A stretch of 64,000 bases of DNA from an uncultured Gemmataceae bacterium (GTDB taxonomy: Bacteria; Planctomycetota; Planctomycetia; Gemmatales; Gemmataceae), in NCBI GenBank assembly GCA_963750165.1, contig CAVVPN010000004.1, positions 480,001-544,000 on the forward strand. Direction: 5' to 3'. The translations under genes and the position numbers were made by a program. Positions 18,025-23,746 of this stretch are shown here, piece by piece. Below the pieces are notes generated by a model. The model had not been told where the DNA came from. It was given only the letters and a program-made list of their open reading frames with translations, and did not search any database. Each line of letters starts with the position of its first letter. Position 1 is the first letter of the stretch.

Positions 18025-18957
18025 TTAATGGCACTTGCTTCCACCCGAAAAGGGAGGCGTCCAGCCCGCCGGCGCGGTCAAGGAGGGCCAGCCGGCTCCC
18101 CAGACGTGGTACGCGAGCAGGGCGCTGGCCAGCAGGGCCAGGAGGGCGGCCAACCCGAAGCCCCACGCCCGGCGCGTCCAGGTTCTCTGGGCGAGCGCCC
18201 GCAGGATTTCGTCCGCCACTTCCGCGACGGGGGCGGAGACGGCCGCGGCGCCGTCCGCCGCATAACGGACCGCGGCCCGGGTGGTGGCCTCTGCCAGTCG
18301 GCCCGGCAGGGCCGGCCGCGCGAAGAACAGCAGGGCGGGCAAGCCGCAGGCCAGGGTTAGCCCGCGGTGCGCCAGACGCTTCCGGAGGAGGCCCCGGGCC
18401 CGGTCCAGCCGCCAGGCCATCGACCCCCGTGGGCAACCGACGATGCCGGCGGCCTCCTCGTGCGTCCGGCCTTCGAGGTAACAGAGCACTAACAGAATCC
18501 GATACCGCTCCGGGAGTTGGTTCAGCTCCTCGTTGAGGATCGCCAGAACTTCCCGGTTGTCTTGCTCGTCTCTGGCCTCGAGGTTTGGCATACTCGCGAC
18601 CTGTTGTTCTCGTGCTTTGCGGCTCGCCGCCCGGCCCCGAACGCGCAGAGCCGCCCGGTGCGCCACCCCGTAAAGCCAGTTCCCAAGTAGCTCGGGCCGG
18701 TCGAGCGATCCGGCCTTGCGGGCGAGGACGAGGAACGTGATCTGGAAGGCGTCCTCAGCGTCGTTCAGATCGCCGAGCACCCGGCGGCACACGCCGAGGA
18801 CCATCGGGCCGTGCCGCGCCACCAGGGCCCCGAAGGCGTCCTCGTCCCGGCTCGCGGTGAAGCGTTGCAGGAGTTCGCAGTCGCCCGGCTCCTCGCCCGC
18901 TGCCCGGCAATCTGCCCGGCGCGGCTTCCCGATTGAGCGATGGGTTCCGTTCATCAT
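18025..18957 (-). CDS. ECF sigma factor with C-terminal TM extension (planctomycete-expanded type)
   Basis: DxELLxRF...RHGPMVLGVCRRVL..DAEDAFQ; region 4 LCYLEGRTHEEAA. Confidence 0.9.
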   Translation of the reverse strand: MMNGTHRSIGKPRRADCRAAGEEPGDCELLQRFTASRDEDAFGALVARHGPMVLGVCRRVLGDLNDAEDAFQITFLVLARKAGSLDRPELLGNWLYGVAHRAALRVRGRAASRKAREQQVASMPNLEARDEQDNREVLAILNEELNQLPERYRILLVLCYLEGRTHEEAAGIVGCPRGSMAWRLDRARGLLRKRLAHRGLTLACGLPALLFFARPALPGRLAEATTRAAVRYAADGAAAVSAPVAEVADEILRALAQRTWTRRAWGFGLAALLALLASALLAYHVWGAGWPSLTAPAGWTPPFSGGSKCH

Positions 18958-19056
18958 GTTCCAGCCTCCGAACTTGTCCCAACCCTCGCCCTAATACTCC
19001 CGCGCCAGGGCCGCCCAACTAAGGTTTTTTTCCAGGACGGCAACGCTGGCTGGACA

Positions 19057-19323
19057 GTGACGCGCCAGCACATCTATACAAGGAATCGCCGCGAGCATCA
19101 ACAGGTGCAGGCATTCCGGGCCGCCGTCAAGCGTCACTACAGCGCGGAGCCCGACAAGGTGGCTTGCAACGACCTCATCACTTCGGAGCAGAACCTGGTC
19201 ACGGTCGTGGGCGCTTACCTCACCGTGCGCGGGCTGCAGTGGCAGGCGGTCGTGGACATGGCCGGCCTGCTGCAAACCGATGAGCTGTTCCAGGGAGCGG
19301 AGCGCTTCCAGAAGGCTGAGTGA
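19057..19323 (+). pseudogene. Remnant resembling the C-terminus of a TolC-family outer membrane efflux protein
   Basis: DLITSEQNLV..YL....QWQAVVDMAGLLQTD resembles OEP C-termini; no plausible 5' part. Confidence 0.45.
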
Positions 19324-19380
19324 GGGCTATGGGATCGCAATGGAATTTGGAAGGTGTAACGGCAACAAGTCGCATCGTAG

Positions 19381-19451
19381 TTCGGGGAGAAGGAGTCGAA
19401 CCTTCACGCGCAGATTCAAAGTCTGCGAGCCTACCATTAGCCGATCCCCGA
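19381..19451 (-). tRNA. tRNA-Gln(UUG), no encoded CCA
   Basis: Full cloverleaf: TCGGGGA/TCCCCGA, GCAGA-CTTTGAA-TCTGC, GAAGG-TTCGACT-CCTTC; discriminator A. Confidence 0.93.
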
Positions 19452-19464
19452 ATTGTTGTTCCAG

Positions 19465-19536
19465 CTGCGGTGGTAGGAGTCGAACCTACACTCATCTCCT
19501 TAACAGGGAGCCGCCTTACCGTTAGGCCACACCGCA
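19465..19536 (-). tRNA. tRNA-Asn(GUU), no encoded CCA
   Basis: TGCGGTG/CACCGCA, D-stem GCCT/AGGC, loop CTGTTAA, GTAGG-TTCGACT-CCTAC; G27.A43 mismatch. Confidence 0.93.
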
Positions 19537-19571
19537 ATAGCTATAGCACATCAGCGAACCAACCGCGAAGT

Positions 19572-19613
19572 AATAAAAAGAGCCAGGCGTCTGGGGTCGA
19601 TGACGCCTGGCTC
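19572..19613 (-). terminator. Intrinsic terminator upstream of the tRNA pair (attenuator candidate)
   Basis: Minus strand GAGCCAGGCGTC-atcgacccca-GACGCCTGGCTC-TTTTTATT. Confidence 0.85.
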
Positions 19614-19644
19614 CGGGAAACACTTCCGGGGGAAGGAAGTGGGG

Positions 19645-19692
19645 TCACCACCGCTCGGGGTTCATCAGGGGTTGATTTTGATTACCGAACAT
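19645..19692 (-). CDS. Putative leader peptide MFGNQNQPLMNPERW
   Basis: ATG TTC GGT AAT CAA AAT CAA CCC CTG ATG AAC CCC GAG CGG TGG TGA; no clear SD. Confidence 0.6.
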   Translation of the reverse strand: MFGNQNQPLMNPERW

Positions 19693-19761
19693 AATCTTCG
19701 CCCACTGGTCCGCTGTCGTTTTCGTCTCACCCTTTCAGGACGCGCGGCGTCCACACCAGGT

Positions 19762-21258
19762 TCACGCGAAAAACGCGCTGGCTTGCGCTGCATTTTTCGC
19801 GGCCTCCTCCGTGCGCTGCGCCAGCGCCCGCAGGCACTGCTCCTCTAACAGATGTCGGCTGCCGCGCAGCACCGGATGCTTCGCCACCACCGCGGCCCGG
19901 AGCGCCTCACGCTCGTCCTCGGTCAGCGCCAGCCAGGGCGGCTCCCAGGCGGCGCGGAACTGCTGCTCCTCCGCCTTCTCGCGCGCGAACGCCTCTTGCT
20001 CGCGCCGCTGCCGCTCCTGCTCCTGCTCCTTGCGCTGCTGCCGGCCCTGCTGCGCTGCCGCCGCCTTCAGCGCGTCGGCCCAGTATTTTTGCACCGCGCC
20101 GCTGAACGACCGACACTCCGGCCACTCCTTGCGCAGCACCTGCACCAGCAATGGCAGCAGCGCCTGTAATGGCTCGGCGGTCTGCGTCCGCAGCAGCGCC
20201 TGCGCCTGCTCCAGGTCGCGCGGTCCCGGTTGCGCGACCACGCTGTCCGTCCACAGTTTGTAGAAGCAGCGCACCAGGTCGTGCGCCGCCTCGGTGAACT
20301 CGGGCGGCGCCGGTGGCGGAGCGTCAGGCGGCAAGCCGCAGACAGCGGGCTCGCTCGGTTCGGCAATTTTTTCCGCCGGCGCTTGTTGAACGGCCTGGAA
20401 GTGGACGCGCCAAACGCCCGCCTGCACCTTCTGGAAGCGCTCCGACAACGGCGCCTTTGCCAGAAAGCCGACCTCCTCCAGTTCCAGGATCGCCGGCAGC
20501 AACCGCCGCTTCAGGATCGCAACGTTGTCGCTCTCCGTCAGCCCGACGTGGCCACAGGCGAACTCGATCAGGTCCATCGACAATCGCGGCGTGTTGTAGA
20601 AGCGCTTGTCCAGAAAACGGTACATGCGCTGGGCAGTCGGCGTCCGCAGCGCGAAAAACAACTCCAGGTTCAGCCGTTTGATGTTGCCGTTCTTCAGACT
20701 CTCGTGAAACTGCGGCGTCCAGGTCACCCAGCTCAACGGCGTCGCGCCCGCCTTCTTCGGGCCGCTCACCTGCCGGGCGATCTTGTACGCGCTGATGACG
20801 CCGGTTGCCAGTTCCTCCTCGTAACTGCGGCCGGCGGCATCCCACCAGGCGTTCTCATAACGGATGTTCAACGACTTCAGCCGCCGCAGCACACCGCGCA
20901 GCCGTTCGTAACTGCGGCCGTTCGGCGCCCAGTGCATGATGTCGAACAGCTGGCTCGGACAATAATGCACCACAGGATCGACGAAGTTGGTGCTGTGCTT
21001 GGCGACCCACAGCAGCGCCAGGATCACATGCTCGTCGGCGGGCGTCGGCAGGCCATCCTGCGCCTGCGTCGTCAGCGTGACGCGCTGCGTGACGCGCTGC
21101 CGCGTCTTCGCGTCCAGCCGGCTTGACTCGTAGACGATGCTGTCGAGCTTGCGGCCGGCCGCGTCGCTTGGCTGCTGTCGCTGCAGGATCGAAATCGGAA
21201 AATCCGCCAAATTCATTTCATCGCGACCGTCCTGGTACGTGCGCTTCAGATTCGGCAT
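19762..21258 (-). CDS. Plasmid-type replication initiator protein A (RepA/RPA family)
   Basis: GRDEMNLADFP, GLPT..DE.V, YENAWWD, RMYRFLDKRFY, ACGHVGL. Confidence 0.8.
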   Translation of the reverse strand: MPNLKRTYQDGRDEMNLADFPISILQRQQPSDAAGRKLDSIVYESSRLDAKTRQRVTQRVTLTTQAQDGLPTPADEHVILALLWVAKHSTNFVDPVVHYCPSQLFDIMHWAPNGRSYERLRGVLRRLKSLNIRYENAWWDAAGRSYEEELATGVISAYKIARQVSGPKKAGATPLSWVTWTPQFHESLKNGNIKRLNLELFFALRTPTAQRMYRFLDKRFYNTPRLSMDLIEFACGHVGLTESDNVAILKRRLLPAILELEEVGFLAKAPLSERFQKVQAGVWRVHFQAVQQAPAEKIAEPSEPAVCGLPPDAPPPAPPEFTEAAHDLVRCFYKLWTDSVVAQPGPRDLEQAQALLRTQTAEPLQALLPLLVQVLRKEWPECRSFSGAVQKYWADALKAAAAQQGRQQRKEQEQERQRREQEAFAREKAEEQQFRAAWEPPWLALTEDEREALRAAVVAKHPVLRGSRHLLEEQCLRALAQRTEEAAKNAAQASAFFA

Positions 21259-21458
21259 CGCTTGATGGTGGGTGAGAATTTTCGATAAGTCAAAAACACA
21301 CTGACTCACTATTCCAACGTCGGCAGCGCTTCGCAAGAGAGTTTGCGGTTTTGGTGTGGGTTTTCTTCTTTCCGTTTTGGTTCTGGTTTACGCACGGCGC
21401 TTGCACGCCGTAAAGTCTGAAATAAGTGGGACTTGTTAAGATTGGTCCGAGCTGAACT

Positions 21459-21589
21459 GTGCGCGGTCGCACGGGGATCGGGTGCGCCGCCGCACGCGGA
21501 CGGGCCGGAAAACGTGCCGCCGCCGCACGGCGACGGAATGCGCGACTGCACGGGAACAGCCGCTAAAAGGTGCGCCGCCGCACGGGGAT
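21459..21589. repeat. Five iteron-like ~20-bp repeats (GTGCGCCGCCGCACGGGGA consensus) upstream of repA
   Basis: GCACG cores at 21469, 21492, 21525, 21548, 21580. Confidence 0.65.
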
Positions 21590-21725
21590 TCGGCTGCGTT
21601 TTTCCTGCGCGGCGAAATCAGACATGATTTCGGGGCTGCGCAGCTGCAGCGCAGCTGTAAACGAGCCCGATGCGCAGCTGCGCCGGCCGCCAACCATCAG
21701 CCGGGGCGGCTCATCGACAAAGATC

Positions 21726-21803: not shown

Positions 21804-21897
21804 GGAGGCGCCGAACAACAACTTCGTAGGACGGCTCTCCAGAGCCGTCGGGACGGCTCTGGAGAGCCGTCCTACGAAGTTGTTGTTCGGCGCCTCC
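21804..21897. repeat. REP doublet (GTAGGACGGCTCTCCAGAGCCGTC) inside a 94-bp palindrome
   Basis: Same REP as in the 8.0-8.46 kb array. Confidence 0.9.
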
Positions 21898-22821: not shown

Positions 22822-22885
22822 TTCCGTGAGGCAGACAGGAATGTCTGCCCCACGGAAGAACGGCAGACAGGAATGTCTGCCCCAC
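22822..22885. repeat. Two REP copies of GGCAGACAGGAATGTCTGCCCCAC
   Basis: 22830-22853 and 22862-22885; same REP as 40528-40589. Confidence 0.85.
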
Positions 22886-22918
22886 GGCAAGCAACCCCCA
22901 GCCGCAAGGAGGAACGCG

Positions 22919-23746
22919 ATGACCCATTGCCTGAAACGCTCCCGCTGGTTGGCCTCGCTGGGCGTGGCCTGCTGCACGTTGTTGTTCCCTTACGGGTCGG
23001 CGGTCACCACCGCCCAGGACAAGGCGCCGCCCGGCGACCGCCTGCACCAGCCTTTCACGGTGGCGACCATCGACGAGGCCCCGGAGGGCCAGCGCCTGCT
23101 GGAGCGCACCAAAACCAACCTGAGCGTCGGCAAACTGTACGAGCAGGTCGTTGGCAACGATGGCGTCGGCGGCCTGTGGGAGCAGGTGAAGTTCGTGTCG
23201 CCGGCCGGCAAACGCCTGGCGTACACTGCGACCATCAAGACGGCGCTGGGCGATGTTGTGCTCGAACTGTGGCCGGACGTGGCCCCGAACCACGTGCGCA
23301 ACTTCGTGGCCCTGGCGCGCGCCGGCTATTACAATGGCCTGGGCTTCGACCGCACCGAGTTGACGCAGGTCGAGGGTCAGCCGCTGGAGTGTCTGTACGC
23401 CGGCTGTCCGGAGGGCACGGGCGACGCGGGCCTGGGCAGCATCGGCTACTGGATGAAGCCGGAACTGAGCAAGGCGGTCAAGCACGAGCCCGGCACGGTC
23501 GGCGCCTACCACGAGGAGGAGGTGGAAACGGCGGCCTGCAAGTTCTACATTACCCTGAGCACGGCCCCGTACAAGGATGGCGAGTTTTCGGTGTTCGGCA
23601 AGGTCACGCAGGGGCTGGACGTGCTGCGTGCCATTCGGGGCCGACCCGTACACCAGGACGACCTCAAGGATCGGCCCGTGGAGCCGGTCGTCATGCAGTC
23701 CGTGACGATCGACTGCCGCGAGGTCGAGGCGGCACCGCCGCGGTAA
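22919..23746 (+). CDS. Exported cyclophilin-type peptidyl-prolyl isomerase
   Basis: Signal peptide; VAPNHVRNFVALARAGYY, FYITL, FSVFGKV. Confidence 0.85.
   Translation: MTHCLKRSRWLASLGVACCTLLFPYGSAVTTAQDKAPPGDRLHQPFTVATIDEAPEGQRLLERTKTNLSVGKLYEQVVGNDGVGGLWEQVKFVSPAGKRLAYTATIKTALGDVVLELWPDVAPNHVRNFVALARAGYYNGLGFDRTELTQVEGQPLECLYAGCPEGTGDAGLGSIGYWMKPELSKAVKHEPGTVGAYHEEEVETAACKFYITLSTAPYKDGEFSVFGKVTQGLDVLRAIRGRPVHQDDLKDRPVEPVVMQSVTIDCREVEAAPPR

Follow-up and report, generated by a model that had tools for sequence, protein, structure and literature searches.

Leader-peptide attenuators are regulators of amino-acid operons, with trpL, hisL, leuL, thrL, ilvL and pheL (PMC3082878) as examples. A comparable element is found on the minus strand of the window analysed here (the whole stretch of 64,000 nucleotides (nt), to whose numbering all window positions refer), which belongs to the chromosome of an uncultured Gemmataceae bacterium (contig C4 of a 9.6-Mb, 66% GC genome with 97 tRNA genes). 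A short open reading frame (ORF), a small hairpin and an intrinsic terminator precede a tRNA-Asn and a tRNA-Gln gene, and this assembly is likely to be a leader-peptide transcription attenuator that controls tRNA genes, as an earlier sequence-only reading of the window had proposed. Leader-peptide attenuation is known; the gating of tRNA genes by it would be new. Like the trp/his-type attenuators, the element combines a short leader rich in diagnostic codons, here with predicted translation, an intrinsic terminator upstream of the genes under control, an antiterminator sharing a strand with the terminator, and a stop codon placed so that a finishing ribosome would mask the antiterminator strand. 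It differs from them in its phylum, Planctomycetota, and in its targets, which are tRNA genes and not biosynthetic genes. Furthermore, most leaders of the family described below are multivalent, matching arrays of 5-17 or more anticodons, the stop codon is located inside the antiterminator strand, and no conserved 1:2 helix was found.

T-box riboswitches recognise uncharged tRNA by direct binding, lack an ORF and control genes for synthetases and amino acids. They have in common with the element described here a transcription attenuation that reports the state of a specific tRNA, but the latter possesses a leader ORF and has no Rfam T-box match. In the antibiotic-inducible leaders such as erm and cat (see PMC5418344), stalling on a short leader also remodels the downstream RNA. 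What these leaders detect is a ribosome with bound drug on a specific peptide, and they act mostly at the translational level, whereas here the leader composition tracks the downstream tRNA genes. 6C RNA (RF01066) resembles the window element in that a U run comes after two hairpins whose loops are rich in C, but the window scores below the Rfam cut-off for this family and six typical members of the leader family do not match it.

Supernumerary tRNA genes spread horizontally, Planctomycetes included, and are silent in Anabaena until translation is impaired (PMC8421152, PMC4758250). The trn array of Anabaena PCC 7120 is under promoter-repeat control and is induced by translational stress, and the regulation of individual tRNA genes is said to be largely unknown (PMC8421152). 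The physiological logic of back-up tRNAs is the one proposed here. The control element is different, a leader ORF being combined here with a terminator switch, and only two tRNA genes are present in the window. The words “terminator” and “leader” are absent from PMC8421152, and “terminator”, “leader” and “attenuat” from PMC4758250. A full-text literature search retrieved no description of a leader peptide or an attenuator in connection with tRNA arrays, papers outside the searched collection being possible, and “leader peptide” does not occur in the tRNA-array literature that it found.

A family of leader and terminator units

The DNA upstream of the tRNA arrays of relatives exhibits the same architecture as the window leader. 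From the proximal to the distal end, the unit is formed by a GAAC..CGTC promoter-like motif, a small ORF with its UGA embedded in a conserved motif, a hairpin of variable sequence, a terminator and same-strand tRNA genes. The conserved pieces are the TGA within (T)TGTGACRYC, the site of motif A, and the terminator GGCCRGGYGTC-loop-GAYRCCYGGCC with its T run, located just before the first tRNA. A search pattern composed of motif A and the terminator, in which a T run after the stem was required, matched 60 places in 49 of 252 Gemmataceae genomes, as compared to 0 matches of the reversed pattern in the same 252 genomes. The addition of L003, from a neighbouring family, brings the collection to 61 distinct elements. 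All 61 have the T run behind the stem, as the pattern demanded, and a same-strand tRNA start follows within 150 nt in 58 of them and within 300 nt in all. In 61 of 61 elements, it is tRNA genes that follow the terminator, which does not fit the biosynthetic or synthetase targets of trp/his-type attenuators, and the genes upstream of the 61 units are unrelated to one another. The window holds a short, Asn/Gln-tuned member of this conserved unit family.

The pattern has three matches in the window's own genome, each ahead of a tRNA cluster. The two copies outside the window are found at C10:88560-90125 (a 16-tRNA array) and C11:2270561-2271153 (a Lys-Pro-Ser-Cys-His cluster); their leaders translate to MRYSVISLVLEQQALQAVAAYQRKLLALDRLNL and MLTARTNLMQPHSWHKPTSMAPCRCNLRL, respectively, each followed by the stop. 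The figures of an all-species scan hold among the matches listed, which comprise 80 loci: a same-strand tRNA lies within 300 nt at 26 of these, 23 of which bear Planctomycetota-type labels, while a 24th (L169, labelled Alcaligenaceae) has a core sequence identical to that of one family genome. The other 54 listed loci, without a nearby tRNA, divide into 52 from other phyla, read as plain terminators, and 2 with planctomycete-type labels. To note, three Verrucomicrobiota-labelled loci (L105, L131 and L143) display a near-identical sequence beginning with TGACCCTGTG and a terminator, with tRNA genes 195-562 nt downstream. No Rfam family, T-box included, matches the leader of the window or six typical family leaders. 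Neither blastn nor nhmmer detects a paralogue of the window leader in its own genome, and a search for DNA homologues in 251 family genomes returned only short chance matches, located inside coding sequence in the three inspected.

The reading frame is maintained across the family. An in-frame ATG without a stop before the motif TGA is present in 61 of 61 elements, and an ATG 26-41 codons upstream of this TGA occurs in frame in 57 elements, as compared to 1 in each of the other frames. Leaders of 33 and 32 codons dominate (20 and 17 elements, respectively). A GAG is located 4-16 nt ahead of the ATG in 43 of 61 elements, and 28 possess a Shine-Dalgarno-like 4-mer. The peptides themselves are poorly conserved, save for a terminal (H/Y)PLRL and for a mid-peptide ER and AGQ in many members. 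In most members (alignment A2, columns 1-18), the ORF ends with ...CC(A/T)(T/C)TGCGCTTG-TGA-C, that is PLRL or PPRL then UGA-C. This conservation might operate at the RNA or at the peptide level, and might bring a component of termination or arrest into the switch.

Upstream of the ORF, 55 of 61 elements, the window included, have GAAC-N15-19-CGTC at no more than 160 nt from the leader ATG, as compared to 0 of 61 when the reverse complement is read. The motif resembles the consensus of promoters of the extracytoplasmic function (ECF) sigma type, with GAAC at -35 and CGTC at -10. The sequence-only reading had seen no promoter for the leader; the GAAC..CGTC motif, as a putative promoter, answers this reservation. 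Across the genome, a relaxed version of the motif shows no enrichment (33 matches vs 24 in the control), and the idea of a regulon was dropped. An ECF-type sigma gene with a C-terminal extension is present on the same strand at 18025-18957 (-), ~420 nt downstream of tRNA-Gln. It was considered as a constant neighbour of the unit and rejected, no sigma gene being found beside the other two own-genome copies.

Codon match between leaders and tRNA genes

The codons of each leader were compared, using wobble rules, with the tRNA genes present within the first 1500 nt behind the element. Over the 61 elements, 800 of 1856 leader codons (43.1%) are read by the element's own array. The other two forward frames yield 435 and 408 matches out of 1795 (24.2% and 22.7%), and the reverse-complement frames 26-27.5%. 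Frame 0 is strictly the best in 51 elements, with 8 ties. The 800 matches compare with an expectation of 524 from pooled codons, of 523 when arrays are permuted (standard deviation 21; 28% for other arrays), and of 507 when bases are shuffled within codon positions (standard deviation 16, z 18). The permutation was repeated with one representative per leader cluster at four clustering thresholds; with 17 clusters, the median z amounts to 7.2, and none of 2000 permutations attains the actual count. The surplus extends over the entire ORF (ratio 1.3-1.8) and is smallest in the last four codons. The most extreme match is that of L090 and L092, from two genomes of one genus, whose leaders consist nearly entirely of Ser, Arg, His and Cys codons and precede Ser-Ser-Arg-His-Arg-Cys genes, each with 18 of 25 codons matched; the peptide of L090 is MLHRLHSRSSSSRHHCRASRSHCICS. 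Across the 61 elements, the codon content of the leader and the anticodons downstream vary together, which is the comparative outcome that the sequence-only reading would predict.

At the locus itself, codon usage in the 29 long ORFs of the window (13,073 codons) bears out the claimed rarity of AAT and CAA: they amount to 3.1 and 5.4 per 1000 codons, i.e., 12% of Asn and 14% of Gln codons. Five of the 14 leader codons after the ATG (codons 4-7 and 11, all Asn or Gln) can be read by the two downstream tRNAs, with a binomial P of 0.0013 against the window coding frequency and of 0.005 against the pooled codons of the 60 other leaders; the other two frames have 1/13 and 0/13 matched codons. The ORF is unusually short, 15 codons instead of the usual 32-33, and is the shortest of the 61. 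The proposed correspondence between leader codons and tRNAs holds as far as the match to both tRNAs is concerned, but the shared N-then-Q order is no evidence, because Asn and Gln genes are already neighbours in large accessory arrays.

These arrays are indeed the source family of the tRNA pair, which the sequence-only reading had considered as a mini-operon. The genome possesses a second tRNA-Asn(GTT) and a second tRNA-Gln(TTG), both quite different in sequence from those of the window. The window tRNA-Gln(TTG) resembles instead the tRNA-Gln(CTG) found in the array of 16 tRNA genes on contig C10, and in 40 relatives the best matches to the window tRNAs are located inside arrays of 10-29 tRNA genes, with the Asn and Gln genes adjacent in three of them. 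Although it counts two genes only, the window pair is of the array type by sequence; it is a piece of a large accessory tRNA-array family and not a purpose-built operon.

A proposed terminator/antiterminator switch

Motif A is complementary to the top of the terminator 5' arm and to the first two loop bases, and its TGAC is invariant in 61 of 61 elements. In alignment A2, the antiterminator formed by columns 14-21 with columns 58-65 has 93.2% of its cells paired, as compared to 20-48% when the partner is slid along the alignment. The helix is not only conserved but covaries across the 61 elements, which provides the covariation sought for the proposed antiterminator: pair 19-60 is AU in 30 elements, GC in 24, GU in 1 and other in 6. 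The family terminator helix has 96.7% of its cells paired, with compensatory changes at 4 of 13 pairs, the largest being at 57-81 (AU 39, GC 18) and 60-78 (CG 29, UA 18, UG 14), and RNAalifold predicts this terminator from the 61 full leaders. When the RNA is cut before the terminator 3' arm, the minimum free energy (MFE) structure of the fragment contains at least 6 of the 8 antiterminator pairs in 60 of 61 elements. Other family members possess a hairpin of variable sequence at the place of hairpin 1, and the loop sequences are not conserved, except for the first two bases, those that pair with motif A.

In the window, the pairing of GGTGAC with GTCATC noticed in the sequence-only reading is present: of the 8 antiterminator pairs of the family, 7 are standard here and belong to the MFE structure of the fragment. 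The terminator is strong (-25.8 kcal/mol) and reaches -26.3 kcal/mol when folded in isolation, with a GC-rich 13-bp stem. It is present with its U tract where it had been placed, but its stem, which starts at 19614, comprises 13 pairs and not 12. A simple terminator scan missed it because that scan was restricted to loops of 3-8 nt, the loop being 10 nt long here. The small hairpin CACTTCC/GGAAGTG, the 15-codon ORF and the two tRNA genes, called by ARAGORN as well as Rfam, are all found as previously described.

A syntenic homologue and an RNA-library contig

A first metagenome scan with an exact 40-mer gave 0 matches. A second one yielded L223, a syntenic homologue of the locus, the other four of its five matches being unrelated terminators. 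L223 carries the 3' end of repA, the promoter motif, a conserved 5' untranslated region, TGGTGAC, the terminator and a tRNA-Asn at +42. Its leader is also 15 codons long (MSGNRNNNGNNRQRW, then the stop) and contains 6 Asn and 1 Gln codons (7/14). The leader codons are the most diverged stretch between L223 and the window, identity being ~85% by eye elsewhere, while the 15-codon length, the ATG, the TGG-TGA ending and the Asn/Gln richness are retained. Such a combination is expected of selection on codon content and not on the peptide. Ahead of the same tRNA, a homologous leader is still Asn/Gln-rich, and the conservation of the leader ORF, on which the sequence-only reading depends, extends from the frame of the 61 elements to this homologue.

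A search of RNA runs returned 4 metatranscriptome runs containing 0.04-0.09 of the sampled words, covering mostly the tRNAs. A 195-nt contig (X1) from an RNA library, belonging to a relative, spans 19468-19660 with 12 differences. Among the 11 that are listed, 9 fall in 19547-19574 (8 in the spacer and 1 at 19574 in the U tract) and 0 in 19575-19660.

Proposed mechanism

The conserved architecture and reading frame, the frame-specific codon match, the covariation in the alternative helix, the strict linkage with tRNA genes and the Asn-rich homologue of the same length largely support an attenuator. From these sequence comparisons we infer promoter activity, translation of the leader, coupling of ribosome and polymerase, stalling, regulated read-through and a physiological trigger, in the following scheme. 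Transcription would start from the GAAC..CGTC motif over the end of the RepA-like gene, and the 15-codon leader would be translated as RNA polymerase moves ahead. With smooth decoding, the ribosome would reach the UGA in motif A (GUGAC...) and mask it, so that the terminator would form and transcription would stop before tRNA-Asn. A ribosome at the UGA is expected to cover motif A, and one held at least 5 codons earlier to leave it free. A ribosome waiting at the Asn/Gln codons would accordingly free motif A, which would pair with the top of the terminator 5' arm, enclosing hairpin 1; the terminator would be blocked and both tRNA genes transcribed. With such a unit, the supply of usable Asn- and Gln-tRNA would be under feedback control.

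In these bacteria, spare tRNAs are probably made only when ribosomes run short of them. A wider proposal, to which we give about even chances, is that Gemmataceae and at least one Pirellulales genome possess a self-referential sensor of tRNA supply: the leader would be written in the codons of its array, the array would be switched on only when those tRNAs fail (starvation, anticodon nucleases, phage attack), and the leader would be rewritten as the array shrinks, as may be illustrated by the Asn/Gln leader of the window and the Ser/Arg/His/Cys leader of L090. If true, the codon-matched attenuator would let tRNA supply feed back directly on individual tRNA genes, through a mechanism so far described for amino-acid and synthetase genes, and accessory tRNA arrays would gain a testable role as inducible back-up sets. 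The 61 natural variants allow leader composition to be compared with array content. Since attenuation needs a ribosome close behind the polymerase, the unit may also bear on the debated separation of transcription and translation in Gemmata-type cells (PMC5287468, PMC5394234): should the sensor exist, ribosomes must follow RNA polymerase closely in Gemmataceae.

Weighing the attenuator against other explanations

Several observations weigh against the attenuator. At the window locus, the antiterminator fragment is the third weakest of the 61 (-13.6 kcal/mol vs a median of -20.4), and one of its eight pairs is a C-C mismatch. The reservation that the antiterminator helix is short stands in the form of a weak helix, as does that on the Shine-Dalgarno sequence, the window leader having a poor one and lacking the GAGG type seen in many members. 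Folding with and without a ribosome mask did not reproduce the switch: all full-leader equilibrium folds retain the terminator, and therefore any switch must be kinetic. RNAalifold found no conserved anti-antiterminator (1:2 helix) in the 61 leaders, an analysis that a weak helix could escape given the poor ORF alignment; an untranslated leader should therefore read through, unlike trp. Kinship of the elements means that the P values of the codon match overstate, and when the leaders are reduced to 6 clusters, the coarsest level used, the median z is down to 3.2 and the worst P is 0.04. No surplus of matched codons is seen in five leaders that head short arrays (L057, L062 and L074, 4/31 each; L080, 1/31; L043, 0/40). 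The L223 contig stops 22 nt past tRNA-Asn, and the comparison with it does not extend to tRNA-Gln. Finally, the sole RNA-library sequence, X1, comes from a relative and may be DNA, and it shows no transcript, start or end.

A plainer explanation would be that the hairpin and U tract merely end the transcription of repA, the tRNA pair being silent or served by its own promoter and the small ORF a product of chance. The terminator sits indeed 150 nt past the repA stop, the window ORF is short and without a clear Shine-Dalgarno sequence, and the leader has neither a paralogue in its genome nor a DNA-level homologue in the 251 family genomes. This explanation is nevertheless improbable: the unit of motif A and terminator precedes tRNAs at 61 places behind unrelated genes, RepA orthologues elsewhere lack it, and the ORF keeps its frame in the family and is kept in L223. 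A separate promoter would also find little place. In 25 of 61 elements, the first tRNA starts no more than 10 nt after the matched T run, leaving no room for a promoter between terminator and tRNA, and the spacer between terminator and tRNA-Asn contains no sigma-70-like site (0 sites in a sigma-70 scan of 18800-20200). It is still less probable that the window copy is a decayed remnant of a once functional member, with an ORF shortened and an antiterminator weakened by a deletion and with a fortuitous Asn/Gln content. The ORF is the shortest and the antiterminator the third weakest of the 61, and a P of only 0.001-0.005 was obtained for one locus picked after the fact. The diverged L223 keeps, however, exactly 15 codons, the ATG and the TGG-TGA, with more Asn codons (6/14), and the differences listed for X1 spare 19575-19660 and gather in 19547-19574.

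The two hairpins could also be thought of as a small RNA of the 6C, sX13 or Scr3202 type, whose loops are rich in C, located before tRNAs by chance. Rfam reports matches over 19649-19575 to 6C (35.3 bits, cut-off 47), Scr3202 (28.7) and sX13 (20.1), none of which attains the gathering score. When the own genome was searched with RF01066, no match at E<=1 appeared among the 150 of 3457 candidates scored, the six typical family leaders have no such match, and the loops are unconserved beyond the two bases pairing with motif A. A small RNA of this kind was rejected, being below the Rfam threshold and not shared by the leader family; its probability is very slight, lower than that of a remnant. 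A different matter is a real switch set by a protein or RNA factor, or by general translation capacity, for example through slow termination or arrest at PLRL/PPRL-UGA-C, instead of codon-specific stalling. In most members, conservation within the ORF is highest over the C-terminal codons and UGAC, some leaders have no codon enrichment, and the only long tRNA array studied, that of Anabaena, answers general translational stress according to PMC8421152. Such a switch would leave no role for the frame-specific match of leaders to their own array along the whole ORF, and the window and L223 are Asn/Gln-rich yet without the PLRL ending. Setting by factors other than codons is therefore unlikely, without being negligible, and codon-specific attenuation is the explanation we prefer.

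Features at the locus and genomic context

The features of the locus are collected in Table 1; the leader and tRNA features are all on the minus strand. To note, the GTGAACC part of the promoter-like motif overlaps the repA stop codon (19764-19762).

Table 1. Position of the leader unit, the tRNA genes and the adjoining gene in the 64-kb window
Feature	Position	Strand	Remarks
RepA-like replication initiator gene	19762..21336	-	Pfam PF10134, E 2e-7; context only
Promoter-like motif	19737..19765	-	GTGAACC 19765-19759, 15-nt spacer, GCGTCCT 19743-19737; putative promoter
Leader ORF, 15 codons and TGA stop	19645..19692	-	Translation MFGNQNQPLMNPERW, then stop
Motif A (GTGACCCC), antiterminator 5' strand, includes leader TGA	19641..19648	-	
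Hairpin 1, CACTTCC / loop TTCCCCC / GGAAGTG, 7 bp	19621..19641	-	Enclosed by the antiterminator once formed
Motif A partner (GGCGTCAT), terminator 5'-arm top and first two loop bases	19600..19607	-	
Terminator hairpin, 13 pairs, 10-nt loop	19579..19614	-	Arms 19614-19602 with 19591-19579
U tract (TTTTTATT)	19572..19579	-	Read from sequence
Spacer, terminator to tRNA-Asn	19537..19571	-	
tRNA-Asn(GTT), accessory type	19464..19536	-	ARAGORN; Rfam 66.2 bits
tRNA-Gln(TTG), accessory type	19380..19451	-	ARAGORN; Rfam 56.5 bits

Besides the genes considered above, ARAGORN reports two tRNA-SeC genes in the own genome (C3:2455903-2455998 and C11:1435205-1435300) and two “tRNA-???” calls with 2-base anticodons (contigs C3 and C11 noted).

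RepA orthologues with 53-62% identity are found in three other genera. They have no tRNA gene within the 1.5 kb examined on each side, their downstream sequence is unrelated to that of the window, and the leader unit is absent. Upstream of the RepA-like gene of the window, three or four iteron-like direct repeats (~20 nt, GGTGCGCCGCCGCACGSGGA) are located at 21450-21590 and a 46-nt perfect inverted repeat at 21804-21897. AATCAAAATCAA was considered as a repeated site or iteron and rejected, a single exact copy being present in the window and the iteron-like repeats lying elsewhere, at 21450-21590. Together, repA and these repeats look like a plasmid-type replication module set in the chromosome between housekeeping genes. 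Farther upstream, two exact 26-nt direct copies of GGCAGACAGGAATGTCTGCCCCACGG, each internally palindromic and 32 nt apart, occupy 22830-22887 and precede a cyclophilin-type gene at 22826-23746.

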